The notes under the pieces are model-generated. The model saw only the letters and a program-made list of their open reading frames with translations. It was not told the origin of the DNA and made no database searches. Shown one piece after another: positions 876-61,983 of a stretch of DNA of 64,000 bases. Numbering within the stretch: the first letter of the stretch is position 1; each line of letters begins with the position of its first letter. The stretch is from an uncultured Clostridia bacterium (lineage in GTDB: Bacteria > Bacillota > Clostridia > TANB77 > UBA1234), in the NCBI GenBank assembly GCA_947588905.1, contig CANQBB010000002.1:170-64169 (forward strand), in the 5' to 3' direction. The translations under genes were made by a program, and so were the position numbers.

Positions 876-985
876 TATATGAAATAGGGGGACGGAGCAA
901 ACTTTCAATTTTGTAACATAGGACAAGAACCAAACAGGGTACGGTGAAAAATTGCAATTTTGCTCCGTCCCCTTCTTTCAAATTA
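876..985. repeat. palindromic intergenic element, copy A (GGGGACGGAGCAAACTTTCAATTTTG ... AATTGCAATTTTGCTCCGTCCCC + TTCTTTCA)
   Basis: A 26-nt arm and its near-perfect inverted copy are separated by about 35 nt. The same arm sequence recurs at 18271-18450 and 61227-61350. It lies between convergent genes. Confidence 0.75.
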
Positions 986-1636
986 TTGTTTATTACATCC
1001 GCAATCTTTTGTTTTTGGTTTATTGCAACCACAATCTTTATTAGGTTGATTTATCATATTATTCATATAGAATTTTTTATCTGCAAGTTTTTCTTCAACG
1101 GTTCTTAAAGCTTCTCCAAATCTCTGGAAGTGAACAACTTCACGTTGTCTTAAATATTTTAATACATCAATAACATCAGGGTCATCTGCTAAATCAATTA
1201 AATATTCATAAGTTGATCTAGCTTTTTGCTCTGCTGCCATATCTTCATAAAGATCAGTTCTAGGGTCTCCTTTAACTTGAATATATGCAGCTGTAAATGG
1301 ATTACCGGCAGCACTTTGAGGATATACACTAATACCATGATCAGTATAATAATCACCTAAACCGGCAGCTTTAATTTCTTCAGGAGAAACACCTTTAGTT
1401 AGCTGACTAACCAATGTGCCTACCATTTCCAAATGAGCTAACTCTTCAGTTCCTATGTCATTAAGTGTAGCTTTAGTTATTTCAGTAGGCATACTAAATT
1501 TTTGACTTAAATATCTAAGTGAAGCAGCTAATTCTCCATCAGGACCACCATATTGACTTATTATAAATTTAGCCATTTGTGGATCTGGTTTTTTAATGTT
1601 TATTGGATATTGTAATTTCTTCTCATATTCCCACAT
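983..1636 (-). CDS. cotJC: spore coat protein CotJC (manganese catalase family)
   Basis: 217 aa with the Mn-catalase/ferritin-like layout (ELAHLEMV, EVVHFQRFGEAL motifs). It sits immediately downstream of the cotJA/cotJB homologues on the same strand. Confidence 0.9.
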   Translation of the reverse strand: MWEYEKKLQYPINIKKPDPQMAKFIISQYGGPDGELAASLRYLSQKFSMPTEITKATLNDIGTEELAHLEMVGTLVSQLTKGVSPEEIKAAGLGDYYTDHGISVYPQSAAGNPFTAAYIQVKGDPRTDLYEDMAAEQKARSTYEYLIDLADDPDVIDVLKYLRQREVVHFQRFGEALRTVEEKLADKKFYMNNMINQPNKDCGCNKPKTKDCGCNKQ

Positions 1637-1638
1637 AT

Positions 1639-1917
1639 CTAATTACCTCCTTTATCCCATGGCCATGGATTTTTAATCCATTTCCATTCACAATCGCCAG
1701 CTGCACTACAAGCTGTTAGTGGACCATACTTTTCTTCATATTCATCTTTTAATTCATCTGTATCATTAACTAAATTTTGATACATACACAATGCATTTTC
1801 ATCAGATGGATGCGTGTTTAAATAAAGTTGTAAATCATATAGCTTAAAATCATGTGCCATGATATCTTTCATCAATTCATCTTTACTCATATTACTCACA
1901 ATCATCCACCTCCTCAC
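1639..1917 (-). CDS. cotJB: spore coat protein CotJB
   Basis: 92 aa with the typical CotJB size and sequence (LYDLQLYLNTHP...DELKDEYEEKYGPL). Located between the cotJA and cotJC homologues. Confidence 0.85.
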   Translation of the reverse strand: MRRWMIVSNMSKDELMKDIMAHDFKLYDLQLYLNTHPSDENALCMYQNLVNDTDELKDEYEEKYGPLTACSAAGDCEWKWIKNPWPWDKGGN

Positions 1918-2173
1918 AAGTTTTGGTTTGAGACAAATATTTGATTAAACATTGAGATTGATTTTTGGTGTAAGGACTTACTAGTTCTGGAAAAGTAGTA
2001 CCATGTGCTAATGATTCTCTTGGGCAAAATGTTTCGCCAATTTCTTGATATGGTACGTAAGCATTTGCTAATCTTGGATTTCTAGGCATTTCTTCTGGCA
2101 TTTTGCAATTAGGACATTTTGGAGCACTATTGCAACCACAATTACGTCTAGGATATCTATTTCTTCTGTACAT
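1892..2173 (-). CDS. cotJA: spore coat-associated protein CotJA
   Basis: 93 aa, Cys/Pro-rich small protein. It is the first gene of the cotJABC-type operon and overlaps cotJB, as is usual. Confidence 0.75.
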   Translation of the reverse strand: MYRRNRYPRRNCGCNSAPKCPNCKMPEEMPRNPRLANAYVPYQEIGETFCPRESLAHGTTFPELVSPYTKNQSQCLIKYLSQTKTCEEVDDCE

Positions 2174-4331: not shown

Positions 4332-6935
4332 TTAATCTTGATTTGTAAGCCATTTACAAAGACCAAGATCTTGATTATTTATAAGTAATGGATTAGTAGG
4401 AGTAATTCTAAATGTATATCCATAATTTCCACCATTATTGATTATTATATTAGCTGAATATTCATATTTTGATTCATCCAATGTATTTGATAATTGCATA
4501 GGTACATACATACTATCTACCATTTTATTTGTATCATCAAATTTACCATAGAATATTTCAACAGAAACATCGTTAGGCGAGATTGATGGAAGTGTTACTG
4601 TACATTTCATTTCAATAGAATCTCCAGCATTAGCAGAAAGTTCTTCTAAGTTAGTATTAGATTCAATAATAATATTATTCCAATTTTCACGAATTCCTTT
4701 TTCCCATTCAATATAACTTTCAACATTTTCTTTAGTATAGAAATTTGAATTTGTTAATCTAATTTGTGGCATATACAATTTATTTAAATAATCAACAAGC
4801 ATTCTACCAGTATTATAAACTCCACCAACAGATTTTATTGAATTTTTCATTCTTTGTATCCACCTAGTGTTTTCTGCCATATTAGATTTTTCATAATATA
4901 ATGGAATTATTTCATTTTCAAGAATATTATATATGCTTTGAGAATCGCTATTATCTTGAATTTCATAATTATTATATTCAGTGTCATCTCCAATTGCCCA
5001 GCCATTTTGCTTATTATATCCTTCATACCACCAACCATCTAGAATGCTAAAGTTGATTACACCATTTAGTCCAGCTTTTTCTCCACTTGTTCCACTAGCC
5101 TCTAAAGGTCTTCTTGGATTGTTAAGCCAAATATCTACACCACTAACTAAATACCTAGCAATATACATATTATAATTTTCTAATATTACAACTTTACCTT
5201 TGAATTGTGGCATGTTGGAAATTTCATATATTTTCTTAACTAAATCTTGTCCTTGAACATCAGCTGGATGAGGTTTACCTGCAAAAATAATTTGAACAGG
5301 TTTAGTTGGATTATTTAAAATATTTGTAATTCTTTCTAAATCTCTAAATATTAAATCTGCACGTTTATACGTTGCAAATCTTCTTGCAAAACCTATTGTT
5401 AATGCATTAGGATCTAGTATTTTATCTATATCATTGATTTCTTCTAATGAAGCTCCATTTCTAATTTTTTGTTCTCTAATATTTTTTCTAACTAATTTAA
5501 CTAATTTCTTCTTTTGAACCATGTGTGCTTCCCATAATTTTTCATCAGGGATACTATCTATATCATTCCAAACTTCACGATCATATGCTTTTTCTTGCCA
5601 GAATGGTCTCATATATGTGTTATATAAATCTTTTAATGTTGGAGCAAGCCATGTGCATGTATGAACACCATTGGTAACATATGTTATAGGTATTTCTTCT
5701 GTTTGAATGTTTGGCCATAACTCGGCAAATAATTTTTGAGAAACACCACCATGAAGTTTACTAACACCATTTTTCTTTCCTGCAATTTTTAGAGCGAGAA
5801 CTGCCATGTTAAAACCTTGAGTATATGTGTTATCATATTTAGTTCCTAGATTTAAAAATTCTGTTCTTGTTATTCCAAGTTCATTGCAATAATTAAAGAA
5901 ATATTTATCCATTAAATCAATAGGGAAAATATCATTACCTGCTGGAACTGGAGTATGAGTTGTGAATATTGTACAAGTAGAAGCCATTTTCTTTGCTACT
6001 TCAAAAGATACATTTTTCTCTTGCATGAAATTTCTGATTACTTCTAAAGTAACAAATGAAGAATGTCCTTCATTCATGTGAAATATTGTTGGATGTATAT
6101 TAAGTTTATTTAATAAATGCATACCACCAATTCCTAAAATAATTTCTTGTGAAATACGCATTTCTTGGTTACCGCCATATAGTTTTAAAGTAAGACCTCT
6201 ATCAATATCTGTATTTAAACCTATATCGCTATCCATTAAATATAATGAAATTCTTCCTACATTGATTTTCCAAATTTTTAAATAAATAATTCTATCAGGA
6301 AATTGTAAAGGAATTACAAGCTCATTTCCATCTTCATCATAAACAGGTAGTATTGGTAAATCAGAGATGTTTGTTGGAGAATAATCAAATAATTCAGAAC
6401 CATCTTTATTTATATATTGACTAAAATATCCTTGCTTATACAGCAAACCAACTGCAACAAAAGGAATACCTAAATCGCTAGCAGATTTGCAATGGTCACC
6501 TGATAATATTCCAAGACCACCTGCATAAAGTGGTAGTATTTCATCAAGCCCATATTCTGCAGAAAAATATGCAATCATATCATTTTGATTTTCTGGGAAA
6601 TGTTCTGAATAATATGTATTCTTATTATTAAGATAACCATTAAAGTTGTCTATAACCATATTATATTCTTTCAAGAAGTCTTCATCTTCAGAAACTTCTA
6701 TTAAACGTTGTTGATTTATTTCAGAAAGAAATTTGACAGGATTTTTATTTACCTTTTCAAATAAATTAGAATCAATGTAGTCATATAATCTTAAAGCATA
6801 AGAGTTCCATGACCACCATAAATTATTAGCAAGTTTTGATAACTCCGAAATCTTTTCAGGTAATTGGGGAGTTACAGTAATTTTTCCAAATAAGTACACT
6901 AAAATTTCCTCCTTTGTATAATAATTTACATACAA
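4332..6935 (-). CDS. glgP: alpha-glucan phosphorylase (GT35 family, glycogen/maltodextrin phosphorylase type)
   Basis: 867 aa, the length and overall layout of the bacterial/archaeal alpha-glucan phosphorylase family, including the region corresponding to the pyridoxal-phosphate site. It ends 17 nt upstream of pyk on the same strand. Confidence 0.8.
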   Translation of the reverse strand: MYVNYYTKEEILVYLFGKITVTPQLPEKISELSKLANNLWWSWNSYALRLYDYIDSNLFEKVNKNPVKFLSEINQQRLIEVSEDEDFLKEYNMVIDNFNGYLNNKNTYYSEHFPENQNDMIAYFSAEYGLDEILPLYAGGLGILSGDHCKSASDLGIPFVAVGLLYKQGYFSQYINKDGSELFDYSPTNISDLPILPVYDEDGNELVIPLQFPDRIIYLKIWKINVGRISLYLMDSDIGLNTDIDRGLTLKLYGGNQEMRISQEIILGIGGMHLLNKLNIHPTIFHMNEGHSSFVTLEVIRNFMQEKNVSFEVAKKMASTCTIFTTHTPVPAGNDIFPIDLMDKYFFNYCNELGITRTEFLNLGTKYDNTYTQGFNMAVLALKIAGKKNGVSKLHGGVSQKLFAELWPNIQTEEIPITYVTNGVHTCTWLAPTLKDLYNTYMRPFWQEKAYDREVWNDIDSIPDEKLWEAHMVQKKKLVKLVRKNIREQKIRNGASLEEINDIDKILDPNALTIGFARRFATYKRADLIFRDLERITNILNNPTKPVQIIFAGKPHPADVQGQDLVKKIYEISNMPQFKGKVVILENYNMYIARYLVSGVDIWLNNPRRPLEASGTSGEKAGLNGVINFSILDGWWYEGYNKQNGWAIGDDTEYNNYEIQDNSDSQSIYNILENEIIPLYYEKSNMAENTRWIQRMKNSIKSVGGVYNTGRMLVDYLNKLYMPQIRLTNSNFYTKENVESYIEWEKGIRENWNNIIIESNTNLEELSANAGDSIEMKCTVTLPSISPNDVSVEIFYGKFDDTNKMVDSMYVPMQLSNTLDESKYEYSANIIINNGGNYGYTFRITPTNPLLINNQDLGLCKWLTNQD

Positions 6936-7748: not shown

Positions 7749-10700
7749 ATGAAAATCATTGAAAAGGTACTAAAGAATAAATTGTCACAATATGGATATA
7801 ACGTTGATACTATTTCAGAAAAATTGAAACAAATTGATTTTGATCTTATTGACAATCAAATTGCTTTTGAAAATGAAGCTGAAAACTTTATTACTATAAA
7901 AGAATATAATGAGCCAACAGTCGAGATTGCAAGAATGTTGGCTAATTATAATAAATATTACATACAAAATATGATTATTGAAGGAGAAATAAATTATACA
8001 ACAGCAATGTCATCAATCAACACAGTTATGCCTGTCGTTGATTATAAACTTTCTAATAGCATTTGCATTGTTGCTACAACTACAGCATTAAATGTTGAAG
8101 TAATTATTTATAGCCCAGATGCACGTGTTGCACAAATGTATGGAAATCAAACGTATGAAAATGCTTTTTCAGATGAAAGAAATAAAATAGCAAAAGAATA
8201 TTATGATGCTTTTGTTGAAAATGGTAGAGTGCCAGAAATAAAAGTAAAAGGAATCTTAGCATTGCTTTTATCTGAATATGTAATAGATGAATTAACTATA
8301 ACTGGTGCAAACCCTAAAATTAAAATGTATGATAATGTTGATGCATATGCAGAAAATATAACAGAGTATAAAATAAAATATATAAATAGAAAGACAAATA
8401 AAGTTGAACTTGCTCATAAACCAATATATATAAAAAGACTTGGCACAGGAGTTTCTGCGGGATTTATAAGCAATGATCCATATATAAAATTAGACAATCT
8501 TCCAGAAGGAGCAGATTTTCCTTTAAATGTAATTTCATATTATTGGACAAATGCTACTAGAAATAAAAAAGAAGAAATATCAATATATATAGCAACTAAG
8601 CCATATGGAAATTATAAAACATATAAAGAATATAGAGAAAATAGCAGTAATAAATATGGAGAGCTTATTAACGCATTAGTTCTACAATTCCAAAAAGAAA
8701 CTGGATTTAGTATTGATAGAGAGTATATATCAAATGTTTTAAAAAAATTAAATCCAGAACTTATATATCCATCTATGGATATTATTAGAGATTGTATGGA
8801 TAATCCTGCTGATCCTGTAGAACCTATTAGATACAAATATAAAGCTATATCTGTTCCTGAAGATTTTGAAAGCAGATTATATATCTCTATTGAAGACAAT
8901 TTAGGAAAAAGATATAAATATAAATTAACTGAAAATGTATTAGATGATTTAACTAGAGTTGGAAATAAATTAGAGTACACAGGTGAAGATGGTAATATAG
9001 TCAGAAAGCAATCAGTAGCTGACTTCAACGTTAATGCTTGTACAGCTATCATAAGAAGAGAAACTCTAATTGATTCTACTCAGATTCCAGGACTTTTGGG
9101 ATACATTTATGAGGATGTTGAATATATTGGAACAGATATGCTTCCAGTTCCAAGTATAGAAGTTGATTTCTATTTTCCATTATTAGCTAAAAGTGAAATT
9201 TCAATGTTTAATGGAACTAACTTTGAATCAGATATGGCTAGCTTTGAAAACGCAAATAAATTTAATGCTACAGATGGAAATACTGTTATAGATACTATTC
9301 CAGGAACTACATATGCAGTTGTTAGATATGTTAATTCTAAAGGAGAAGTACTTAAAGAAAATAAAATAACAAATCTTTTCCCTGGAACACCATATGTTCC
9401 TGAAATTATACCTATAATAAATGATATAAATGGATTGGAATGGGTTTGCTCAAATTCTCAATATCCTTCTACCGTTATTAACATGATACCAGAATACAAT
9501 GTCATAGAAATAAAATATGTTGAAAAATTTTCAAAAGTAACTATTGTATATTTAAATAGAGAAGGTAAAAAAATATGTGATGATGTAATAGAAACTTTGC
9601 AAGCTGGTACAACATATGATTTATCTAAGAAAATGCAATATACTGATGAACAAAATAATGATTGGCGATTAGTTACAGCCAGACCTCAAAAACTTCTTGT
9701 AAAAGATGATGAAAGTAAAAACAATATAATTCTAATATATGATTTAGAAAAAGAACCTGTTAAGGTTAGATTCTTAAAACCTGATGGAGAAGAAGTAAAA
9801 GAAGCATTAGTAAAAGATTTTCAAGTTGGAAAACAATATACTTTACAAGTTGATAGGATAATTATTGATAAAGAGGGACTTGGCTGGGTATATAACGGAA
9901 AGAATCCTGTATCATGTATGGTTGAAGAAGATAAAGAAAATCTAATAGAAGTTACATATGAAGAATATAAACTTCCAGTCGTTGTAAAATATCAAACTGA
10001 AGATGGAGTTGTTATTTTAAACGATTATGTTGAATATTTACAGGTTGGTAAAGAATTTATTCCAAAATATGAAAATGATGTAACAGATTTTAAATTAAAG
10101 AGATGGAAATTTAAATCTTTAAATAAAAAAGAGTTGATAGTTTCAAAAAATAAAGATGAAAACGAAATAAAAGTTATTTATGAACCTTTACTTGCAAATG
10201 TATTTATACAGCTATTTGATGAAATGGGTAAGAAGATAATAAGCCCTATACAAAAAGAAGCTCAAATAGGTGGAGAATTTTCATCTGGCTTTTTAGATGA
10301 TATTACAGATAACTATGGAAAAATGTGGACAAAAGCAGATGAACCAAAAACATTGATAGTTAGTGATATTGAAGCCGAAAATAATATAACAATAAAATAT
10401 AAACCTCTTATAGTTAAAGTTGTTGTTAAGTTTTTTGATGATGAAAGAAATGAACTAATTCCAAGCAAAAATTATGAAAGACAAGCTGGTACAAAATTTA
10501 TACCAGAAATCATAAAAAAATTAGAATCATCTGACGGAAGAAAATGGATTTATAATGATGAAAAGAATTCTGAAGTTACGGTAAGAAAGAATGAAGAAGA
10601 AAACATTGTTTCTATTTTTTATGATAAGGAACTAACAGATGTAAGATTAGAATTTATGGATGCATATAACAATGTGATAAGAGATAGTACAGTAGTACAA

Positions 10701-13700
10701 GCACAAATAGGTAGTGTGTTTAACGAAAGACTTTTTGAAAAGGTAGAAGATAGAGAAGGTTGCAAATGGATGCTAGAATCTTCTGAACCAAAGAAGATGG
10801 TTGTTAAAGTTGATAATAATAACTTTAAGTTATTCTATGGTGAAATGAAAGCAATAGTTATTGTTAAACATATTAACGTAAATACAAATAAAAGTATTAT
10901 TGATGACATAGTGGCAAAAGTAAAACTTGGAGGAGTGTTTGTTCCAAATATTCCAGAAAAAATATTTGATTCTAACAAGCTACAATGGAGTTTCATAGGA
11001 GATAAGAATTTTTCTATTGTTGTAAAAGAAAACGAACAAGAAAATATAGTAATGCTTCAATATGATGAAACATTGGCAAAAGTAAATGTAAAATACCAAG
11101 ATACATATAATAATAAATTGCGTGATGATATAGATTATGATTATCAGATTGGTAAAGATGTAGACTTAAAGAATATGGAAAAATTTATCGACAACAATGG
11201 AATAGGCTGGAAACTACAATCTTCAAAAACTAAAAATAATAAAGTACAAGAATCTGGTAACGAAGTTGTAAATACTTATGAGCCTTGGTATTCAGAAGTT
11301 AAGGTTAGATATTTAAATGATAAAGATGAAGAAATTGCTGATCCTTTCGTTAAAAAGATACAAGTTGGTAGAGGATTTAAACCAACTTATGAAAATAGAA
11401 TAGAAGATGGAATAGGCTTATTATGGACATATTCTTCTATATCAGAAGAAGAAATTAAATTATCGGAAAACGGCAATACAATTGATGTTAAGTATGAACC
11501 AGTATATTCAAATGTTACAGAAAGATTATTTAATAAGGCTGAAGAAAAAATCGGTGATGAAATTGTAAATAAATATCAAGTTGGAAGTAATATAAAATTT
11601 ACTCCAGAAGAAATATATGTTGATAGTGAAACTAAAAAGTGGAACTTTATCAAAGTTGATAGACCTTCAATACGTGTTAAAGAAAGTGAAGAACAAAATA
11701 TTGTTAATAGAGTTTATGAACCAAGAATGACAGATTTAATAGTAAAAATGCTTGATGATAATAGTAATGAAATTGCCGACCAAAAGAAATATTCTGTACA
11801 AGTTGGAAGTATTTACAAAGCTAATGTTCCAAAAACACATATTGATAAGAAGACAGGATTAGGATGGGCACTTCCTGAAAATCCTGAAGATACTATGAAA
11901 GTAGATGAAGATAAATCTAAAAATATTCTTTCTGTAAAATATATTAAATATATGGTAAAAGTTACAGATAGAATTGTAGATTTAGATAAGAATATTATAA
12001 TTCCTGATACAGAAAAAATGTTGCAAGTTGGTACTACATATGCACCTCATATAGAACAAGTTTTGAATGACCAAGAAGGAAAAGAATGGTTGTATAATGA
12101 AAAACGTAAAAAAGATTTATTGTTTGATAGTGCTGAACAAGCAAAAGCATTTAAAGGTGAAAAACTTGAAATAACAGTATCAGAAGATGAAGAGAAAAAT
12201 ATTGTATTTCTTAAATATAAGCCATCTCTTGAAAAAGTTACTATTAAGTATCAAAATGATTTAGGAGAAATAATTGCTCCTGAAGAAGAAGTTGATGCTC
12301 AAATAGGTAGTGTATTTACACCTAACATAAAAGAAATGGTTGTAGATAGTAAGAAAAATAAATGGGCATATAACCCTAATAGTAAATCTACTATTACAGT
12401 AAGCAGAGATAAGACAAAGAATCTTATAGTTCTTTCTTATGAAGAAGAAAAGGCACCAATAATTTATCTTTATTGCGATGAATATGATAATGAACTTAGA
12501 GAGCCAAAGAAAAAATTGGCACAAATAGGTAGCATATGTACTCCTGAGATAGATAGTATTGTTTCTGATAATGAAGGAAAAGTATGGGAATATAAATCTG
12601 CTAATGTAGATAAAATAACTGTAAAAGATTCAGAGAAAGATAATATAGTTAAAGTTACATATGTTCCATTACTTATGGATGTAAAAGTGTACTTTAAAAG
12701 TAGAAAAGGAGAACTAATAGGAAGCGAGACACAGAAGGCTCAATTAGGAAGTACATTTAAACCTGCAACGAATGAAACTATAAATGATAAAGATTCTAAG
12801 ATGTATCGAATAATTGGTTGTGAACCTGAAGAGTTAGTTATTAAAGAAAATCCTATTGGTGTTGAAGAAGAAATAAATAAATTTAATGTTTCTTATGATC
12901 CTGTATTTAGCGATATTACAACGGTATATCAAGATGTAGATGGTAACAAACTAAAAGATGATGAAGTTATTCAATTACAAGTTGGTACAAAATATACTCC
13001 AAAGTTAATTCAATTTGTTAAAGATAGAAAAGGTATTCAATGGCAAAATATATCTGAAACAGTTGATGCTATTAGAGTTATGGAAGATCCAAAATCTAAT
13101 ATAATTAAAATGACATTTGAATTAGCTAAAGCAGAAGTTCTAGTTAGATATAAAGATATAGATGGAAATATTATTAGAGAATCTGAACGATTTGATTCTA
13201 AGATTGGTGAAGAATTTGTACCTAAGATAGAAGATATAATAGAAGATGCTAAAAGTAGAAAATGGGTATTTTCTATGGCTGACCCAGTTAAATTAACTGT
13301 TGGAAGTATAAATAATATTATAAATTTGATATATCAAGAAAAGAAAGTACCTGTTGTAATAAAGTATGAGACAATAGATGGTAAAAAACTAAAAGAAGAT
13401 ACAAAAGTAAATGTACAGGAAGGTTCACAATATACACCTAAAAAGAATTATCCTATTATATATGATGAAAATAATGAGATGTGGAGATACTTAGAGTTTA
13501 GACCATCGTCACTACTAGTAACAGATAAAGATTCTGAAAATATTATTATTCAAGTTTATGACAATAAAGAAGAAAGTGAAAGAAAGCCTGTACTAGAAAA
13601 TCCATTTGCCAATACACTTACTGAAGAAGAAATGAAGATTGTTGAAGAGCAAACTGCAAAAATTGAAATGCAGAAGAAAGAAGAAGAAATGGCAAAAGAA

Positions 13701-14531
13701 AGAGCAGCTGCTAATAATACTGAAGAAGAAATATTTAAGGATAAAAATTTAATAGATTTATCAAGAAGTGTTGTATTAGAAAACAATGAAAAACAAGCAA
13801 TTGTTAAATTAAATGAACTTAATAAAAAGATAATTGGTGAACTAAATACTATGAAGACATCATTTGACTTAAATATGAAAGATTCAGTTCTTAGAAATAT
13901 TAGTCAATACATGCAAGAAGAAAAAGATATTATCGAAAAAGAATTAAGTGACATGATTACAAATGATAAATCTGGAAAGAAGTTTATGAAAGTATTAGAA
14001 GCAATTGTACAAGATGATTTTGAATATTCAAAAATGCAACAGAGAAAAAATGTTTTATTAACAGATTATTTTGTAAATTCAAAAATTTCAGCAAATGAGC
14101 AAGCTAACTATATATGTGAGCGTGGAAAGAATGAAAAAGGATTATTAGTATTGCAAGAAAAAATAAAAAATGAAAAGAAGAATATAGCTGAATTACAAAA
14201 ATTATTTATTGAGATGATATATGAAAGAGCAATGTTAGATAATTATTACAAGACTAGAACCAAGGCAAAAGATGATTACTTTATAAATGAAGCAGATAGA
14301 AATTCTATGGGTTCAGAAATTGTTATTCTTGTAACCAATATATTACCACGACAAGCTTATAGTATATTACAAAAAGATACTAATATATCTTTAGCACAAG
14401 AAAATGAATTAGATGCAATAATAAATCTATTAACACCACAACAAAGGACAACGTTGGAAAAGATGGTAGATGATACAAAAGATAATAGATTAAAGAAATC
14501 AATGCAAAAGAGATTGAAAAATATTACATAA
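7749..14531 (+). CDS. giant repetitive protein (2260 aa): N-terminal about 520-aa unique domain, about 19 tandem 74-aa MucBP-like beta modules, C-terminal about 350-aa coiled-coil-like region; no signal peptide
   Basis: Single uninterrupted ORF with the ribosome-binding site GAGGTGAAAAAGAATG. The modules repeat the pattern V.V.Y.D..G..I......Q[VI]G..[FY].P.......D..G..W........ENI[IV].V.YEP. The N-terminus is not hydrophobic. The C-terminus is rich in E/K heptad-like stretches. Confidence 0.8.
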   Translation: MKIIEKVLKNKLSQYGYNVDTISEKLKQIDFDLIDNQIAFENEAENFITIKEYNEPTVEIARMLANYNKYYIQNMIIEGEINYTTAMSSINTVMPVVDYKLSNSICIVATTTALNVEVIIYSPDARVAQMYGNQTYENAFSDERNKIAKEYYDAFVENGRVPEIKVKGILALLLSEYVIDELTITGANPKIKMYDNVDAYAENITEYKIKYINRKTNKVELAHKPIYIKRLGTGVSAGFISNDPYIKLDNLPEGADFPLNVISYYWTNATRNKKEEISIYIATKPYGNYKTYKEYRENSSNKYGELINALVLQFQKETGFSIDREYISNVLKKLNPELIYPSMDIIRDCMDNPADPVEPIRYKYKAISVPEDFESRLYISIEDNLGKRYKYKLTENVLDDLTRVGNKLEYTGEDGNIVRKQSVADFNVNACTAIIRRETLIDSTQIPGLLGYIYEDVEYIGTDMLPVPSIEVDFYFPLLAKSEISMFNGTNFESDMASFENANKFNATDGNTVIDTIPGTTYAVVRYVNSKGEVLKENKITNLFPGTPYVPEIIPIINDINGLEWVCSNSQYPSTVINMIPEYNVIEIKYVEKFSKVTIVYLNREGKKICDDVIETLQAGTTYDLSKKMQYTDEQNNDWRLVTARPQKLLVKDDESKNNIILIYDLEKEPVKVRFLKPDGEEVKEALVKDFQVGKQYTLQVDRIIIDKEGLGWVYNGKNPVSCMVEEDKENLIEVTYEEYKLPVVVKYQTEDGVVILNDYVEYLQVGKEFIPKYENDVTDFKLKRWKFKSLNKKELIVSKNKDENEIKVIYEPLLANVFIQLFDEMGKKIISPIQKEAQIGGEFSSGFLDDITDNYGKMWTKADEPKTLIVSDIEAENNITIKYKPLIVKVVVKFFDDERNELIPSKNYERQAGTKFIPEIIKKLESSDGRKWIYNDEKNSEVTVRKNEEENIVSIFYDKELTDVRLEFMDAYNNVIRDSTVVQAQIGSVFNERLFEKVEDREGCKWMLESSEPKKMVVKVDNNNFKLFYGEMKAIVIVKHINVNTNKSIIDDIVAKVKLGGVFVPNIPEKIFDSNKLQWSFIGDKNFSIVVKENEQENIVMLQYDETLAKVNVKYQDTYNNKLRDDIDYDYQIGKDVDLKNMEKFIDNNGIGWKLQSSKTKNNKVQESGNEVVNTYEPWYSEVKVRYLNDKDEEIADPFVKKIQVGRGFKPTYENRIEDGIGLLWTYSSISEEEIKLSENGNTIDVKYEPVYSNVTERLFNKAEEKIGDEIVNKYQVGSNIKFTPEEIYVDSETKKWNFIKVDRPSIRVKESEEQNIVNRVYEPRMTDLIVKMLDDNSNEIADQKKYSVQVGSIYKANVPKTHIDKKTGLGWALPENPEDTMKVDEDKSKNILSVKYIKYMVKVTDRIVDLDKNIIIPDTEKMLQVGTTYAPHIEQVLNDQEGKEWLYNEKRKKDLLFDSAEQAKAFKGEKLEITVSEDEEKNIVFLKYKPSLEKVTIKYQNDLGEIIAPEEEVDAQIGSVFTPNIKEMVVDSKKNKWAYNPNSKSTITVSRDKTKNLIVLSYEEEKAPIIYLYCDEYDNELREPKKKLAQIGSICTPEIDSIVSDNEGKVWEYKSANVDKITVKDSEKDNIVKVTYVPLLMDVKVYFKSRKGELIGSETQKAQLGSTFKPATNETINDKDSKMYRIIGCEPEELVIKENPIGVEEEINKFNVSYDPVFSDITTVYQDVDGNKLKDDEVIQLQVGTKYTPKLIQFVKDRKGIQWQNISETVDAIRVMEDPKSNIIKMTFELAKAEVLVRYKDIDGNIIRESERFDSKIGEEFVPKIEDIIEDAKSRKWVFSMADPVKLTVGSINNIINLIYQEKKVPVVIKYETIDGKKLKEDTKVNVQEGSQYTPKKNYPIIYDENNEMWRYLEFRPSSLLVTDKDSENIIIQVYDNKEESERKPVLENPFANTLTEEEMKIVEEQTAKIEMQKKEEEMAKERAAANNTEEEIFKDKNLIDLSRSVVLENNEKQAIVKLNELNKKIIGELNTMKTSFDLNMKDSVLRNISQYMQEEKDIIEKELSDMITNDKSGKKFMKVLEAIVQDDFEYSKMQQRKNVLLTDYFVNSKISANEQANYICERGKNEKGLLVLQEKIKNEKKNIAELQKLFIEMIYERAMLDNYYKTRTKAKDDYFINEADRNSMGSEIVILVTNILPRQAYSILQKDTNISLAQENELDAIINLLTPQQRTTLEKMVDDTKDNRLKKSMQKRLKNIT

Positions 14532-16726: not shown

Positions 16727-16926
16727 AATATTACCTCCCTAATTTATCATCTGTACATCTATTAAAATATTTTATATTAAAAGTTATTTAAATTCAACAT
16801 TTTTAAAATATTTTTAAAAAAAATTTGTATTATCTTTACAAATAAAGTCAAGTTAGATAAAATTATAGTATAAATACACAAGAAAATTAAGATACAGCAG
16901 ATTAAATTTTGAGGGGAGTAATTTTT

Positions 16927-18267
16927 ATGAGAATAATGATGCTTTCTTGGGAATATCCACCAAGGATTGTAGGTGGTATTGCTAGGGTTGTACATGATTT
17001 ATCACATAACTTTGCTAAACAAGGACATGAAGTTCATGTAATAACTTATCAAGAAGGAGACACAAAAGAATTTGAAAAAGATGGAGATGTTTTTGTACAT
17101 AGAGTTTCAAATTATCCAATAAATGCAAACAATTTAATTGATTGGGTAATGCAACTTAATTTTTGTATGTTAGAGAAAGCATCGGCAGTTATAAAAGAGT
17201 ATGGAAAATTTGATGTAGTGCATGCTCATGATTGGTTAGTTGCTTATGCGGCTAGAGCAATAAAGAAATCGTATAAATTACCATTAGTTGCAACAATTCA
17301 TGCAACTGAAAGTGGAAGAAATAAAGGAATACATAATAAATCTCAAGGATATGTAAATGATGTTGAATGGTTACTTACATACGAAGCTAGTCATGTTATT
17401 TGTAATAGCTATTATATGAAAAATGAAATAAAAAATTTATTTGGTAAACCTGAAGATGATATTTTTGTTGTTCCAAATGGAATAAATGTAAATAAATTTG
17501 ATAATGAAGAAAGAGATTGGGAGTTTAGAAGAAATTATGCAGCTGATTATGAAAAAATAATTTTCTTTGCTGGTAGAATAGTAAATGAAAAAGGAATACA
17601 AATTTTATTACAAGCTGCTCCAAAAATTCTGGCTAATTATCCAAACGTTAAATTTGTAATAGCAGGAAGAGGACCATGCTTAGATGAATTAAAAGGTTTA
17701 GCAGATTATCTTGGAATATCAAATAAAGTTTACTTTACAGGTTATTTAAATGATGCACAAATTACTAAGATGTATAAAGCAATAGATATTGCAACATTTC
17801 CAAGCTTATATGAACCATTTGGAATAGTTGCATTAGAAGGAATGCTTGCAGGTGCAGCTACAGTTGTTTCTGATGCTGGTGGATTAAATGAAATTGTTTC
17901 TCATGGAATTGATGGAATGAAATCATATGCTGGAAATGCTAATTCACTTGCAGATTCTATACTTGAAGTTTTATTTAATGAGAATTTATGTAAGAGTATG
18001 GCGAGAAACGCAAGAGAAAAAGTTATTAGAGAATTTAATTGGGGTGTAATTGGAAAGAAAACGTTGGATGTTTATAAACTAGCAATTAAAGCTAATAAAG
18101 CTACTTTGAAATCAGATGTAAGCATAGAAAAATTAGCAGAAAAAGAAAGCTATGGAACTGCTACATGTGTTGATGGAAAAGATACAACAATTACCACAGA
18201 CACTACAGATACAGAAATAAAAGCATTGCATAATCCACTTAAGAAAAAAGTTTTAGGAAGAGCATAA
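16927..18267 (+). CDS. glycosyltransferase family 4 (glycogen/alpha-glucan synthase-like, GlgA-type)
   Basis: MRIMMLSWEYPPRIVGGIARVVHDL is the GT4 N-terminal motif. The C-terminal half is GT-B-like. Start taken at the ATG after the ribosome-binding site GAGGGGAG. Confidence 0.8.
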   Translation: MRIMMLSWEYPPRIVGGIARVVHDLSHNFAKQGHEVHVITYQEGDTKEFEKDGDVFVHRVSNYPINANNLIDWVMQLNFCMLEKASAVIKEYGKFDVVHAHDWLVAYAARAIKKSYKLPLVATIHATESGRNKGIHNKSQGYVNDVEWLLTYEASHVICNSYYMKNEIKNLFGKPEDDIFVVPNGINVNKFDNEERDWEFRRNYAADYEKIIFFAGRIVNEKGIQILLQAAPKILANYPNVKFVIAGRGPCLDELKGLADYLGISNKVYFTGYLNDAQITKMYKAIDIATFPSLYEPFGIVALEGMLAGAATVVSDAGGLNEIVSHGIDGMKSYAGNANSLADSILEVLFNENLCKSMARNAREKVIREFNWGVIGKKTLDVYKLAIKANKATLKSDVSIEKLAEKESYGTATCVDGKDTTITTDTTDTEIKALHNPLKKKVLGRA

Positions 18268-18270
18268 ATT

Positions 18271-18450
18271 ATGAAACATGGGGACGGAGCAAACTTTCAA
18301 TTTTGCCCCGTCCCATTGTTTGTTTCACATCTGTTTTGCTCTGTCCCATTGTTTGTTTCATCTCTATTTTGCTTCTGTCCATGTTTCAAAATTGAAAGTT
18401 TGCTCCGTCCCCATGTTTCAAATTGAAAGTTTGCTCCGTCCCCATGTTTC
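18271..18450. repeat. palindromic intergenic element, copy B: one inverted arm followed by a tandem array of about 32-nt direct units (ATGTTTCAAATTGAAAGTTTGCTCCGTCCCC), with two degenerate and two perfect units
   Basis: Read directly from the sequence. The 5' arm is ATGAAACATGGGGACGGAGCAAACTTTCAATTTTG. It is followed by 4-5 direct units, of which the last two are perfect reverse complements of the 5' arm, and ends in a T-run. Confidence 0.8.
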
Positions 18451-18471
18451 ATTTTTATTTGAAAAATTATG

Positions 18472-18497
18472 CATATTTTGAAAAACTTCTCATATAG
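18472..18497 (+). promoter_or_regulatory. candidate sigma-E-type promoter upstream of spoIVA (ATATT - 13 nt - CATATAGA)
   Basis: Matches the B. subtilis SigE consensus (ATATT -35, CATACA-T -10). Positioned 55 nt upstream of the spoIVA ATG. spoIVA is SigE-dependent in Bacillus. Confidence 0.35.
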
Positions 18498-18549
18498 ATT
18501 AACTAAAGTGATGTGTACAAACACAAAAACATAAGGAGGAGGATTTGTA

Positions 18550-20025
18550 ATGGAGAATTACAATATATATCAAAATATTGCAACAAGAACAAATGGAGAT
18601 ATATACATAGGTGTTGTTGGTCCGGTTAGAACAGGTAAATCAACTTTTATAAAACATTTTATGGAATTAGCAGTTCTTCCCAATATAAAAGATGATGTTA
18701 AAAGACAGAGGGCTCAAGATGAATTACCTCAAAGCTCTAATGGAAGAACTATAATGACAACTGAACCAAAGTTTATTCCGAACGAAGCTATACAAATTAC
18801 TGTAGATAATGTTAAGTTTAATACAAGAATGATTGATTGTGTAGGATATTTAATCAATAATAGCATTGGACATATGGAAGGAGATGTACCGAGAATGGTA
18901 AGAACTCCTTGGTCTGATGAGGAAATTCCATTTGAAGAAGCAGCTGAAATTGGAACTAAAAAAGTTATTGATGAACATTCTACTATAGGAATTTTAGTAA
19001 CAACAGATGGAAGTGTAACTGGAATTGACAGAAGTGATTATTTAAATGCAGAAGATAGAGTTGTAAAAGAATTGAAAAAGCAAAATAAACCATTTATAAT
19101 TATTTTAAACACAATAAATCCAGATGATGAAAATGCTAAAAAGATGTGTATTGATTTAGAAAATACATATGATGCTCCTGTAGTTCCAATGAATTGTGAA
19201 CATTTAAGTAATGATAATATAAATGATATTTTAGAAAAAATTTTATATGAATTTCCAATCAATGAAATTGATATGAACTTTCCTAAATGGATTGATTCTT
19301 TGGATAATTCACATTGGCTAAAAAAGAATATTTTAGATATAATAAAAGACAATTTATCAGATATGAAAAATTTAAGACAAATAAAATTACTAATGAATAC
19401 ACTTGGTGATGGAAACATTATTAAAAAAATGGATGCCGATGAAATCTTTTTAAACAATGGAGTTGTTAATGTAAAAGTTGAAATTGATAAAAATTTATTT
19501 TATAAAGTATTAACGGAAATGTCTGGAATAGATGTAAAAGAAGAGGGGGACTTATTTAGTATTGTTACATCAATGGCTAAAAGTAAAAAAGCATATGACA
19601 AGATTGAGCAAGCATTAAATGAAGTAAAAAGAAAGGGCTATGGAATAGTTAATCCTGATATTGATGATTTAACTTTGGAAGAACCAGAAATAGTAAAACA
19701 AGGTTCAAAGTTTGGAGTTAAATTAAGAGCAAAGGCACCTAGTCTACATATAATAAGAGCTGAAATTGAAACTGAAATTTCTCCTATAGTAGGAAGTGAA
19801 AAGCAATCAGAAGAGTTGGTGAACTATTTACTAAAGGAATTTGAAGATGATCCAAAACAGATTTGGCAATCTAATATATTTGGAAAGTCATTACATGAAC
19901 TTGTAAATGAAGGACTTCAGAATAAGTTATATAAAATGCCAGAGGATGCTCAAATGAAATTCCAAGAGACATTAGAAAAAATTATTAACGAAGGTAGTGG
20001 TGGCTTAATTTGTATTATACTTTAA
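18550..20025 (+). CDS. spoIVA: stage IV sporulation protein A (spore coat morphogenetic ATPase)
   Basis: 491 aa. The N-terminus YIGVVGPVRTGKSTFIKHFMELAVLPNI carries the SpoIVA Walker A. Full-length similarity to SpoIVA. Confidence 0.93.
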   Translation: MENYNIYQNIATRTNGDIYIGVVGPVRTGKSTFIKHFMELAVLPNIKDDVKRQRAQDELPQSSNGRTIMTTEPKFIPNEAIQITVDNVKFNTRMIDCVGYLINNSIGHMEGDVPRMVRTPWSDEEIPFEEAAEIGTKKVIDEHSTIGILVTTDGSVTGIDRSDYLNAEDRVVKELKKQNKPFIIILNTINPDDENAKKMCIDLENTYDAPVVPMNCEHLSNDNINDILEKILYEFPINEIDMNFPKWIDSLDNSHWLKKNILDIIKDNLSDMKNLRQIKLLMNTLGDGNIIKKMDADEIFLNNGVVNVKVEIDKNLFYKVLTEMSGIDVKEEGDLFSIVTSMAKSKKAYDKIEQALNEVKRKGYGIVNPDIDDLTLEEPEIVKQGSKFGVKLRAKAPSLHIIRAEIETEISPIVGSEKQSEELVNYLLKEFEDDPKQIWQSNIFGKSLHELVNEGLQNKLYKMPEDAQMKFQETLEKIINEGSGGLICIIL

Positions 20026-32901: not shown

Positions 32902-35373
32902 ATGAAGGTACTATTTGCAATAGGAAGTGAACAAACTTCTAAAAGAGTTGCCGAAAAATATTATGAAAAATTTGGAGAAGAATTAGAATATAAAAATGTT
33001 TTTTATTTTCAAGCTCTCTTGAATGAAGTTAAAGCTGATAAAACTTATGACAGAATTGTTATAAGCGAAGAATTAGAAGAATTTGTAATAAAAAATAATG
33101 TAGAAGCTTTTGATAGACTTATATTTAATAAAATTGATAGTATAACAGATGAAATTGAGGATTCAGAAATCATTGTTATATGCTCTGATAGAAGAAGCAA
33201 AAATCAAGATAGATTTGTTGAAAGACTTTTTAGTATTGGTGTATATAACATATTGATTGGTGATGAAAGAAATGTTGAATCACTATGTAACTGCATAAAT
33301 AAACCACTAAATAAAAAAGAAGCAAAAAGACATTTAAACATTAATCCTGTAGTTAGTAATAGCGAACTTTCTACTAGAGATGATGAAGTAGAAGAAGTTC
33401 AAATGCTAAATATATTAAAATATTATGATGGAATTAAAGGAAAAGTAGATGAATATGTTCCTGCATTTGACAGAATAGCTGAACAATATAGCCAAGTACA
33501 ATTAAAAGTAATTGCAAGTCAACTTCCTGCTGATGTAAAAAGAGAATTACTTAAATCTGAAAGATATATATTCTTATCTGATGTTTTAATGCCTAGAGGA
33601 AGTGAAACACCTCAAAAGAATAATGTAATAAAACAACAGGTTAGTAAACCTTCTAAGATGGGATTATTTGGATTCTTGAAAAAGAATTCAAATTCGAATT
33701 CAAATCCAATTAGTGAAAATACTAGAAGAACTGATAGACCAGGTGCAATTGATAGAGAACCAACTAACATTGAACAAGAAAGAAGAAATAGTGCTGAAAT
33801 GGATGCCATTGCTTTACAGGAAGCTAAAGATAGAGAACAAGCCGAATTGAGAGCAAAAGCAGAACGTGAGGCTATGGAAAGAGAACAAGCTGAATTAAGG
33901 GCTAAAGCAGAACAAGAAGCTAGAGACAGAGAACAAGCTGAATTAAAAGCAAAAGCTGAGCAAGAAGCTAGAGACAGAGAACAAGCTGAATTAAAGGCAA
34001 AAGCAGAACAAGAAGCTAGAGATAGAGAACAAGCTGAACTAAGAGCAAAGGCCGAACAAGAGGCTAGGGATAGAGAGCAAGCTGAAAAGACTAGAGTAGA
34101 ACAAGAAACTATGGCTAGACAACAAGCTGAATTGAAAGCTAGAGCAGAGCAAGAAACTAGAGAAAGAGAACAAGCTGAACTAAGAGCTAGAGCAGAACAA
34201 GAAGCTAGGGACAGAGAGCAAGCTGAGCTAAGAGCTAGAGCAGAACAAGAAGCTAGAGATAGACAACAGGCTGAATTGAAAGCTAGAGCAGAACAAGAAG
34301 CTAGAGACAGAGAACAAGCTGAGTTAAGGGCTAGAGCAGAACAGGAAGCTATGGCTAGACAGCAAGCAGAATTAAAATCTAAAGAAGAACAAGGAGTTCA
34401 AAGAAAAATGGAACAAGATTCATTAGAAGAAGAAAGAAGAAAATTAGAGCAAGAAAAACTTGCATTAGAAGAGGAAAGAAAAAAATTAAGAGAACAAACA
34501 GAACAGCTTAGCAAATCTGCAGGAATGAGTTCGACTCCTAGACCTACAATTGATACTAATTATGATAGCAAAAAAATGGATTATAAAAAGATGGTAATTT
34601 TTGTCGGTGCAAATAAAAGTGGAACAACATTTATGGTTAATGCTATTTCACATCATTTGGCTGATAATAGAGTTGGTGTCGGTGTATTAGATATGACAAG
34701 AGATAGAAGTCTTTATTATATATATAATCAAGATAGCAAAGAATTAAGAGATGTTGCACTTGGTTGTATGCAAAAATTATCTGAAGGTGTTGATTCATAT
34801 ATTCAAGGTAAGAGAAACTTAAAAATATATACATCAGTACCAGGCACTAATGTTGATAATAGAAGAGGCTTTAGAAATAAATCTATTATAGATACTTTGA
34901 CAAATAATAATAATCTTGTTATAGTAGATGCTGATTTCTCAGCTCCATTAGAATATTTTGAAAAAGCTGATGAAATATATATAGTACAAGACTTAGATAT
35001 TATGAAGATGCAAGAAACAACATTATTTTTACGTGAGCTAAAAAATAGAAGTGTAAATATGAATAAAATTAGAATTATAATAAATAAGTATGTTAAATGT
35101 CAATTAACACCTAAGAAAATAATAGAAGGTTTATCATATTATAATGATCCACAAATGTCATTTGTAGATGAAATATTAGATAATAAAACAGCTTATTATT
35201 TAGTTCCAATTAGTATTGAAAATTATACTAATTATATTGAAAGTATGTATAAAAATAATATAGATTATAAAAAATATACACCAGATTTCTTAAATGCTAT
35301 TAAAGATATTGCTTCTGTTGTTTATAAAAGAGGAGGAGCAACTCAAACAAAGAGAAGAGGAATCTTTGGATAG
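32902..35373 (+). CDS. three-part protein (823 aa): receiver-like N-domain, 11 tandem 16-aa repeats (DREQAELRAKAEQEAR), degenerate ParA/MinD/CpaE-like P-loop C-domain
   Basis: Ribosome-binding site GGAAGGTGATTATAGATG. The N-domain (MKVLFAIGSEQTSKRVAEKY...IVICSD) is flavodoxin/REC-like. The centre is a perfect-period charged repeat. The C-domain (MVIFVGANKSGTTFMVNAISHHLADNRVGVGVLDMT...LVIVDADFSAP) aligns to the deviant Walker A and Walker B of the MinD/ParA/CpaE family with substitutions. Confidence 0.75.
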   Translation: MKVLFAIGSEQTSKRVAEKYYEKFGEELEYKNVFYFQALLNEVKADKTYDRIVISEELEEFVIKNNVEAFDRLIFNKIDSITDEIEDSEIIVICSDRRSKNQDRFVERLFSIGVYNILIGDERNVESLCNCINKPLNKKEAKRHLNINPVVSNSELSTRDDEVEEVQMLNILKYYDGIKGKVDEYVPAFDRIAEQYSQVQLKVIASQLPADVKRELLKSERYIFLSDVLMPRGSETPQKNNVIKQQVSKPSKMGLFGFLKKNSNSNSNPISENTRRTDRPGAIDREPTNIEQERRNSAEMDAIALQEAKDREQAELRAKAEREAMEREQAELRAKAEQEARDREQAELKAKAEQEARDREQAELKAKAEQEARDREQAELRAKAEQEARDREQAEKTRVEQETMARQQAELKARAEQETREREQAELRARAEQEARDREQAELRARAEQEARDRQQAELKARAEQEARDREQAELRARAEQEAMARQQAELKSKEEQGVQRKMEQDSLEEERRKLEQEKLALEEERKKLREQTEQLSKSAGMSSTPRPTIDTNYDSKKMDYKKMVIFVGANKSGTTFMVNAISHHLADNRVGVGVLDMTRDRSLYYIYNQDSKELRDVALGCMQKLSEGVDSYIQGKRNLKIYTSVPGTNVDNRRGFRNKSIIDTLTNNNNLVIVDADFSAPLEYFEKADEIYIVQDLDIMKMQETTLFLRELKNRSVNMNKIRIIINKYVKCQLTPKKIIEGLSYYNDPQMSFVDEILDNKTAYYLVPISIENYTNYIESMYKNNIDYKKYTPDFLNAIKDIASVVYKRGGATQTKRRGIFG
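33826..34380 (+). repeat. intragenic tandem repeat, 48 bp repeated about 11 times (encodes [D/M]REQAEL[R/K]AKAEQEA[R/M])
   Basis: Direct reading shows gatagagaacaagctgaattaagagc(a/t)a(a/g)agcagaacaagaagctaga units with synonymous or conservative variation. Confidence 0.85.
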
Positions 35374-60496: not shown

Positions 60497-61231
60497 TTGG
60501 ATGAGGATACTATGAGTAGAAAAGAAAAAATAAAAATATTTAAAATTTCATTGATGGCTATTGTTATTTTAATTGCAATAATATTAGTTATATTTTTGGC
60601 TCCTGTTATGAAGAATTTAAGTACACTTGAAGGACAGCTTGCTTTTAAAAATAAAGTTTCAAGAATGGGAATATGGGGAGTATTGTTATTGTTTGGATTG
60701 CAACTTGCTCAAATATTTTTAATTGTACTTCCTGGAGAACCTATGGAATTATTAGCTGGAATGTGTTATGGAGGTTTATGGGGAACTGTATTTATAACGG
60801 TTACAGTTGCATTAACAACAACATTGATTTTCTTTTTAGTTAGAAAACTTGGAAGAAAATTTGTAAATGATTTTTGTGAAGAAGGAAAAGTAAACAAAAT
60901 TATGAATAGTAAATTATTTAAGAATCCTAAAAAAGTTGAACTAATAATGATTATATTATTTTCAGTACCTGGCACACCAAAGGATTTATTAGTTTATTTA
61001 GGTGGGTTGTTACCAGTAAAACCTCTTAAATTTATTTGTATATCTACCTTTGTTAGATTTCCTTCTGTAATTTCCTCAACACTTGCGGGAGCATATTTGG
61101 TAGTGGGTAATTGGAAATTAAGTTTAATGACATATGCTATTGTTTTACTTATAGTTTTGATACTATTATTTGTAATAAATTTATTTGATAAAAATAAAAC
61201 AACAGAAGAAGTTATAAAAACAATGAAATGA
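60497..61231 (+). CDS. TVP38/TMEM64-family (DedA-related) membrane protein
   Basis: 244 aa, multi-pass membrane protein with the characteristic ...LPGEPMELLAGMCYG... segment. Confidence 0.7.
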   Translation: MDEDTMSRKEKIKIFKISLMAIVILIAIILVIFLAPVMKNLSTLEGQLAFKNKVSRMGIWGVLLLFGLQLAQIFLIVLPGEPMELLAGMCYGGLWGTVFITVTVALTTTLIFFLVRKLGRKFVNDFCEEGKVNKIMNSKLFKNPKKVELIMIILFSVPGTPKDLLVYLGGLLPVKPLKFICISTFVRFPSVISSTLAGAYLVVGNWKLSLMTYAIVLLIVLILLFVINLFDKNKTTEEVIKTMK

Positions 61232-61350
61232 AACAAGGGGACGGAGCAAACTTTCAATTTTGTTGCAATAATGAATTTGTAACGAAGGAAAAAGAAAAAA
61301 ATTGAAAGTTTGCTCCGTCCCCTTGTTTCAACTCCCGTCCCCTTGTTTCA
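61227..61350. repeat. palindromic intergenic element, copy C (ATGAAACAAGGGGACGGAGCAAACTTTCAATTTTG ... AATTGAAAGTTTGCTCCGTCCCCTTGTTTCA + extra CTCCCGTCCCCTTGTTTCA + T-run)
   Basis: Same arms as copies A and B. It overlaps the stop codons of two convergent genes (61231 and 61348). Confidence 0.8.
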
Positions 61351-61983
61351 TTTTTTGGAAACTTTAATAATTGCAATTTTTTTCTTAAATAGTTTTTTAT
61401 ATATTATAAATAGTATGAATAATATTCCTAAAATTATATAAATAATATTAGAATATTCTTTGAAATATAATAAAATATTTTGCCAAGATTCTCCTGCAAA
61501 TGCTCCTAAAGAAACAAGAATAATATTCCATATTGCAGATCCTAGTATAGTAAAAATCATAAAAAAAGAAAAGTCCATGTCACTCATACCTGCTGGTATA
61601 GAAATTAAACTTCTAATTATTGGAATAAATCTACAAAAGAAAACAGAATATTTTCCTTTTTCTAAAAACCATTTTTCTGACTTTTCAATATTATCTATTT
61701 TGAAATGTAATAAATGTCCTAATTTTCCATTAACTAATTTATATAAATTATTTCTATTTAATAATTTTCCTATGTAATATAAAATTATTGCTCCAACAAC
61801 ACTACCAATAGTTGAAAAAACTGTGACACCCCAAATAGTTAGTTGTGTATGAGTTGTGAGAAATCCACTAAATGTTAATATAACTTCGGATGGAATTGGT
61901 GGAAACAAATTTTCTATTGCAATTAGTATAGCTATACCAATATATCCAAAACGATTCATAATTGCTACAATTAAATTAAGCAA
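61348..61983 (-). CDS. DedA-family membrane protein
   Basis: 211 aa. The N-terminus GYIGIAILIAIENLFPPIPSEVIL is the DedA signature. Multi-pass. Confidence 0.8.
   Translation of the reverse strand: MLNLIVAIMNRFGYIGIAILIAIENLFPPIPSEVILTFSGFLTTHTQLTIWGVTVFSTIGSVVGAIILYYIGKLLNRNNLYKLVNGKLGHLLHFKIDNIEKSEKWFLEKGKYSVFFCRFIPIIRSLISIPAGMSDMDFSFFMIFTILGSAIWNIILVSLGAFAGESWQNILLYFKEYSNIIYIILGILFILFIIYKKLFKKKIAIIKVSKK

Follow-up and report, generated by a model that had tools for sequence, protein, structure and literature searches.

Analysis of the gap between the genes for a GT4 glycosyltransferase and SpoIVA suggested that the palindromic element located there (18271–18461 of the window, by which we mean the whole 64-kb stretch of DNA that was analysed) is a small, non-coding, lineage-specific interspersed repeat, which has been expanded in tandem at this site and serves as the terminator of the GT4 gene; we give this reading a probability of about 0.6. 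Judging by the shape and position of the element, it most likely ends the GT4 transcript and insulates the spoIVA promoter from read-through. The anatomy of the repeat, its three copies in the window, their positions and folds, and its absence in relatives were read directly from the DNA; we infer that it acts as a terminator, has a history of duplication, and spread by copying rather than by common descent. The copies are referred to below as loci 1, 2, and 3, locus 2 being the one in the GT4–spoIVA gap. The features of locus 2 and its surroundings are as follows.

16909–18267, plus strand: GT4 glycosyltransferase gene, upstream of locus 2 (Pfam E 3.5e-43)
18271–18305, plus strand: left arm of locus 2, ATGAAACATGGGGACGGAGCAAACTTTCAATTTTG, beginning 3 nt past the GT4 stop codon (18265–18267)
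18281–18314, plus strand: compact hairpin formed by the left arm core, an 8-nt loop, and degenerate unit U1 (folding)
18301–18333, 18334–18366, and 18367–18398, plus strand: degenerate reverse-complement units U1, U2, and U3 (repeat analysis)
18387–18420 and 18420–18452, plus strand: near-perfect reverse-complement arms, head to tail (inverted-repeat search)
18453–18461, plus strand: T-run TTTTATTTG, directly 3' of the last unit
18469–18549, plus strand: spoIVA promoter and leader, outside the element (alignment with relatives)
18550–20025, plus strand: spoIVA, downstream of locus 2 (Pfam E 5.7e-115)

Repeat searches bore out the composite palindrome that had been described at this site, with one arm and a tandem array of its complement. 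The region 18271–18452 consists of one 35-nt arm and five head-to-tail reverse-complement copies, three of them degenerate and two near-perfect, with the reservation that in a short-read metagenome assembly such as this one the number of 31–33-nt units may be misassembled. The plan of the array given in the original prediction stood, and its count of four units (two degenerate) had to be replaced by five in register (three degenerate). The repeat finder returned two perfect inverted repeats, one of 34 nt (18272–18305/18387–18420) and one of 33 nt (18271–18303/18420–18452), so that each near-perfect arm is fully complementary to the left arm. These two copies had been called perfect; they differ by one A (AAAATTG vs. 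AAATTG). Tandem Repeats Finder divided the array into a part of period 33 (18300–18380) and a part of period 31 (18379–18451), and the in-register TTTGC starts of the units at 18302, 18335, 18368, 18399, and 18430 gave periods of 33, 33, 31, and 31. Units U1 and U2 were 85% alike and both carried a TGTTT insertion. The T-run reported after the array was found at the position listed above. On this anatomy, half of the palindrome at locus 2 was most likely amplified through successive local tandem duplications, by slippage or unequal exchange; U1–U3 would be the older, decayed units, and the two newest would be those that are still near-perfect.

The claim that the same 26-nt arm occurs at two other loci was confirmed. 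Exact copies were located at 888–913 and 61237–61262, each with an inverted partner, at unlinked intergenic sites. The boundaries of these two copies are given below.

879–981, plus strand: locus 1, with left arm 879–913, 33-nt spacer 914–946, and right arm 947–981
61228–61351, plus strand: locus 3, with left arm 61228–61262, 34-nt spacer, and right arm 61297–61331

In the whole window, the 26-nt arm had seven matches at three or fewer mismatches, compared with 0.00 expected from 100 shuffles, and a fuzzy search, a whole-window repeat search, and nhmmer with an HMM of the seven arms revealed no further copy there. Arms from different loci were identical at 28–34 of 35 positions (31–34 of 35 when the decayed right arm of locus 1 was left out). 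The flanks of the three loci are unrelated and share no homology. At either end of all three copies, the sequence TGAAA.A.GGGGACGGAGCAAA... is invariant, forming terminal inverted repeats. Loci 1 and 3 both hold the inner block TAAC[AG][TA]AGGA[CA]AAGAA, which indicates that the whole element, and not merely the arm pair, comes from one ancestor. Within a copy the two arms agree in their variant (CAT/ATG in locus 2, CAA/TTG in locus 3), and a single stem position is occupied by U-A in locus 2, A-U in locus 3, and G.U in locus 1; the three sequences give a hint that the arms within each copy may stay complementary. In addition, locus 1 is flanked on either side by a 5-bp ATTAT repeat (874–878/982–986), and locus 3 has an extra 20-nt partial right end (61332–61351) followed by a TTTTTT run.

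Cross-matching of loci 1 and 2 showed the unit underlying the element to be a compact palindrome of terminator-like shape, TGAAACAT-GGGGACGGAGCAAA-CTTTCAAT-TTTGCTCCGTCCCC-ATGTTTCA, followed by a T-run. Its parts are, in order, the A-rich end TGAAACAT, a stem half of 14 nt that is rich in G+C (GGGGACGGAGCAAA), a loop of 8 nt, the second stem half, complementary to the first (TTTGCTCCGTCCCC), and the U-rich end ATGTTTCA with the T-run. Against the composition of the window, in which G+C amounts to 28%, the core GGGGACGGAGC is conspicuous. The left end of locus 2 (18281–18314) represents this unit with a decayed right half, and it forms a hairpin of 13 pairs with one A.C mismatch and with AUUGUUUGUUU directly after it. 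The right part of locus 1 (935–973) represents the unit with a decayed left half, and the degenerate left half occupies 935–962, from within the spacer onward. The compact hairpin of locus 2 folds at -25.4 kcal/mol, which is within the range of ordinary terminators of the same genome and one relative (-21.5 to -30.2 kcal/mol); its z score was -4.5, compared with -6.6 to -8.2 for those terminators.

Whole-element folds were much deeper, with -44.4 kcal/mol (z -6.2) for locus 1, -67 kcal/mol (z -8.7) for locus 2, and -64.9 kcal/mol (z -10.8) for locus 3. Two arms folded alone did no better than shuffles (-8.1 kcal/mol, z -0.3). The alternative long hairpins that had been proposed for locus 2 were reproduced as perfect stems of 34 and 33 bp with nearly equal energies, in which the left arm pairs with the fourth unit (arm:U4, -60.0 kcal/mol) or with the fifth (arm:U5, -58.4 kcal/mol). 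The long hairpin is followed by UUUUAUUU; only the arm:U5 form abuts the final T-run, and the arm:U4 pairing leaves it 31 nt from the stem. During transcription of the GT4 gene, the compact hairpin would be expected to form first in the RNA, followed by the U-rich stretch AUUGUUUGUUU, and either of the two hairpins of about 34 bp could form later, the second one abutting the T-run.

The position of the element in its gene context is consistent with this function. The flanking genes were those named in the original prediction, a GT4 glycosyltransferase and SpoIVA by Pfam, and the C-terminus of the glycosyltransferase is intact in comparison with relatives. No other terminator-like site was found between GT4 and spoIVA. 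The element lies at the 3' end of the gene and presents a G+C-rich stem directly before a U-rich tract, as in intrinsic or SPRITE-like terminators; its stems of 34 bp and loops of 33–81 nt are, however, far longer than those of usual terminators, which speaks against this reading. On the other side, about 15 nt separate the element from the conserved spoIVA promoter, so that the placement of the element at the start of the promoter region was correctly described, and the terminator or insulator role suggested for it fits this position. The promoter region consists of GCATATT, 13 nt, CATATAGAT (in the alignment, CATATAGATTAA), the leader, and the ribosome-binding site GGAGGAGG; the sequence from 18469 onward, from GCATATT through promoter and leader to GGAGGAGG, is common to all relatives aligned. 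Judging by the B. subtilis consensus, we take GCATATT-13 nt-CATATAGAT to be sigma-E-like.

The other two copies are also closely associated with stop codons. The right end of locus 1 lies 1 nt from the stop codon of cotJC (983–985, minus strand), which is the last gene of a cotJA-cotJB-cotJC spore-coat operon (983–2173, minus strand). Locus 3 occupies the entire 116-nt spacer between two convergent VTT/DedA genes, and the TGA stops of both genes (61229–61231 and 61348–61350) lie within its terminal TGAAAC. In each copy, at least one end is 0–3 nt from a stop codon, which holds for four of the six element ends overall. Since the element supplies both stops at locus 3 and is the sole candidate terminator at two of the three loci, its loss would not be neutral. 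Two of the three copies also adjoin sporulation genes (the 3' end of cotJC and the 5' side of spoIVA), which may be due to chance.

The repeat is absent from the relatives that were compared. The window makes up nearly the whole of one metagenome-assembled contig of 64,171 bp (NCBI). Its SpoIVA protein is the sole member of its protein cluster, and the nearest one outside the cluster shows 85% identity. No copy of the motif was present in six loci of relatives whose SpoIVA is 79–85% identical (L001–L004, L008, and L009; 79.6 kb in total). A density equal to that of the window (three loci in 64 kb) would predict about 3.7 loci, and the Poisson chance of finding none is approximately 0.02. The presence or absence comparison that had been proposed thus yielded absence in six of six, with an ordinary terminator in place where the GT4–spoIVA gap was readable: in L001, L003, and L004, the GT4–spoIVA order is kept and an ordinary terminator stands right behind the GT4 stop codon. 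In L002, a plain terminator is found at the 3' end of the VTT gene. The locus 2 element accordingly occupies the place of the ordinary terminator present in relatives. Other palindromes were noticed in the same set. The convergent gene spacer of L002 (17900–18086) holds a different complex palindrome of two adjacent AT-rich hairpins with 21- and 24-nt stems, the G+C-rich 27–29-nt loops of which are mutually complementary and give 59-nt arms with 86% complementarity. Just 3' of spoIVA in L001, the closest relative (6128–6248), an inverted repeat of 32 nt was found that shows 78% complementarity, has 57 nt between its arms, and is unrelated in sequence to the window element. It may be that each of these low-GC Clostridia has palindromic repeat families of its own.

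The distribution of the repeat outside these loci was explored using two exact patterns that fit six to seven of the seven arms. The pattern GGGGACGGAGCAAANTTNCAATTT had no matches in GTDB species genomes (one genome per species, 185,579 species) or in JGI metagenomes, and TGAAANANGGGGACGGAGCAAA had one match in the former and two in the latter; these three were judged to be chance matches because of their GC-rich context and the lack of an inverted partner. The single match in the genome collection was located in a Bryobacterales MAG (JAYUSZ010000010.1; L005:229–264), where the likeness to the arm extends past the 22 matched bases with CT, a 2-nt insertion, and TTCAATTT; without an inverted partner or an Rfam match, and in its GC-rich context, it was likewise treated as chance. 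One shortened exact pattern had no matches among viral contigs (IMG/VR), blastn of the element against plasmids and phages returned none, and a full-text literature search for the core sequence retrieved unrelated eukaryotic primers only. The expression "interspersed family" thus refers to three sites on one contig, the large exact scans having produced no further copy. The view of the repeat as genome-wide, dense, and mobile found no support in the sequences searched: the pattern scans of GTDB genomes and JGI metagenomes gave the chance matches only, the relatives gave no copies, no transposase gene was found in the window, and a flanking direct repeat accompanies one copy of three.

An alternative that we consider unlikely sees in the repeat a non-autonomous transposable element of a purely selfish kind (a MITE or REPIN-like hairpin), which would have no host function, would be merely tolerated 3' of genes, and would be moved by a transposase encoded elsewhere in the genome. 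Its terminal inverted repeats TGAAAC...GTTTCA, its location outside genes, the near-identical arms at unlinked sites, the inner block common to loci 1 and 3, the 5-bp ATTAT on either side of locus 1, and its absence from relatives would all be expected of such an element, and the spacers of REPINs are likewise less conserved than their arms (PMC3116915). However, no target duplication was found at loci 2 and 3, and an AT-only 5-mer at locus 1 could be chance. Among the 36 window ORFs, Pfam detected no transposase, recombinase, or Cas domains, only housekeeping families or no match, and no matching insertion sequence was found in the window or in the collections scanned; a longer element with the same ends was absent from the window, GTDB genomes, JGI metagenomes, IMG/VR, plasmids, and phages. 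REP units are imperfect palindromes with a conserved GT[AG]G head, and this head is missing here. The service of the element as the sole candidate terminator at two of three loci, and as the source of both stops at locus 3, also argues against a purely selfish nature.

It is rather improbable that the family is local only, a single terminator palindrome having reached two neighbouring terminator sites through gene conversion or ectopic recombination. The known copies all fall within 60 kb, and the exact patterns turned up no genuine copy among the GTDB genomes (one per species); were the host genome part of that set, with this window alone masked, the rest of it would be without a copy. Against local copying, the flanks of the three loci offer no homology to guide recombination, and the CAT/ATG and CAA/TTG subtype differences, present in both arms, fit copying of the whole element. 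A further reading, likewise rather improbable, assumes a population of REPIN-like, self-copying hairpins in this low-GC Clostridia lineage that carry their own inward-reading TGA stops and a two-way terminator and are moved by a putative hairpin-recognising transposase. Were this true, the element could replace a whole 3' spacer harmlessly and would be pre-adapted to the 3' ends of genes.

We regard as very improbable the possibility that the array consists of binding sites for a DNA-binding regulator of sporulation genes, as might be thought from the five direct repeats just 5' of the spoIVA promoter and from the cotJ operon adjoining locus 1; at cotJC the element sits 3' of the gene and not at a promoter, locus 3 lies between two membrane-protein genes, the relatives have the same spoIVA promoter without the array, and no linked regulator gene was found. 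The reading as a small RNA, a peptide, or a degenerate CRISPR-like array, to which the units of about 32 nt and open frames of 51–75 codons across the element might point, is largely refuted: promoter-like signals did not exceed chance and no Rfam family was matched at the gathering score anywhere in the window, contrary to the suggested sRNA; the translated frames of the three copies, compared with 5.8 billion proteins, matched none at E<=10 (a weak test, as short tails cannot score); and the units abut without spacers, no cas gene occurs among the ORFs scanned, and CRISPR-DR6 of Rfam reached 14.9 bits against a 39-bit threshold, in agreement with the original statement that this is not a CRISPR array. 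A relaxed Rfam scan of 18150–18600 gave just miRNA and snoRNA noise from the long hairpin, and the window contains no tRNA genes. Two further candidates were rejected: an invertible promoter switch, as the inverted repeats do not enclose the conserved promoter and no gene for a recombinase was detected, and an integron attC site, as no integron integrase was found and the ends, by eye, are unlike attC core sites.

Compared with known families, the closest analogues of the element are SPRITE (terminator-shaped and near 3' ends), BOX (composite with a tandem array), and REPIN (inverted doublets with variable spacers); SPRITE and BOX are described in PMC3049150 and REPIN by Bertels and Rainey (2011; PMC3116915). 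Like SPRITE, the element is interspersed, has the shape of an oversized terminator (long duplex, U-rich tract), is enriched near the 3' ends of genes, and shows no clear target duplication, and co-option as a terminator has been proposed for SPRITE as well (PMC3049150). The two differ in the lack of any sequence relation, in the host lineage, in stem length (up to 34 bp here vs. 18 bp in SPRITE; PMC3049150), and in the composite structure of the window copies, with split halves and tandem units. With BOX of S. pneumoniae (boxA-boxB(n)-boxC; PMC3049150), the element shares a composite structure, complementary terminal modules, a variable inner tandem array, and a stem-loop fold, and in both the array length was probably changed by slippage or unequal exchange. 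Unlike boxB, which differs from the ends, the tandem units here are copies of the terminal arm with no separate inner module; one of the three window copies has an array, and the likeness to BOX concerns architecture, sequence similarity not being expected.

REPINs or BIMEs, RAYT-mobilised REP doublets (PMC3116915), resemble the element as inverted pairs of a unit of about 35 nt with a less conserved spacer, folding into a hairpin; this inverted-doublet hairpin is present at all three loci (folds of -44 to -67 kcal/mol). Both are extragenic, and singlets, partial units, and clusters occur beside doublets (PMC3116915). The 35-nt arm, however, has no GTAG or GTGG head and is not palindromic by itself, the host belongs to a low-GC Clostridia lineage, and no RAYT (Y1 transposase) gene, which the repeats usually flank, was detected by Pfam among the 36 window ORFs. 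REPs number tens to hundreds per genome, and the window has three loci in 64 kb. Bacterial MITEs (Correia elements, RUP, and bcr1) are similarly short, non-coding, structured, and intergenic, with terminal inverted repeats and a presence that varies between related genomes; the window copies differ from them in having no consistent target-site duplication, no parent insertion sequence in the window or collections, and an inner sequence that is only partly common. We therefore assign the element to none of these named families and see it as a new member, specific to its lineage, of the familiar class of small palindromic interspersed repeats.

Such repeats are well studied in proteobacteria and streptococci, but hardly at all in uncultured Clostridia from the gut and the environment; families of stem-loop repeats have been described from C. 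perfringens and C. tetani (PMC2267715). The finding opens no new kind of biology. Its interest is in a repeat that would stand in for a terminator, that supplies the stops of two converging genes at locus 3, and that precedes a sporulation promoter with tight timing. Were this borne out by transcript data, the element would be a clear example of a repeat recruited for termination and insulation, as well as a useful strain marker.

Other repeated sequences were noted in the window. Downstream of spoIVA, a tandem duplication of about 380 nt (20093–20365/20477–20746, 75–80% identity) gave rise to two small minus-strand HTH genes (Cro/C1-type) encoding 59 and 83 aa, where L001 has one. Within the ORF at 32902–35373 (823 aa, no Pfam family match), a coding unit of 48 nt, rich in Glu, Arg, Ala, and Gln, is repeated about 12 times (33720–34515). 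A 2260-aa ORF with internal repeats (7749–14531) probably encodes a large surface protein; its counterpart in relatives had a faint MucBP match only. Finally, two adjacent paralogous genes of 413 and 460 aa were 78% identical over 300 nt (27288–27587/28637–28936), and their counterparts in relatives carry copper amine oxidase N-terminal-like domains.
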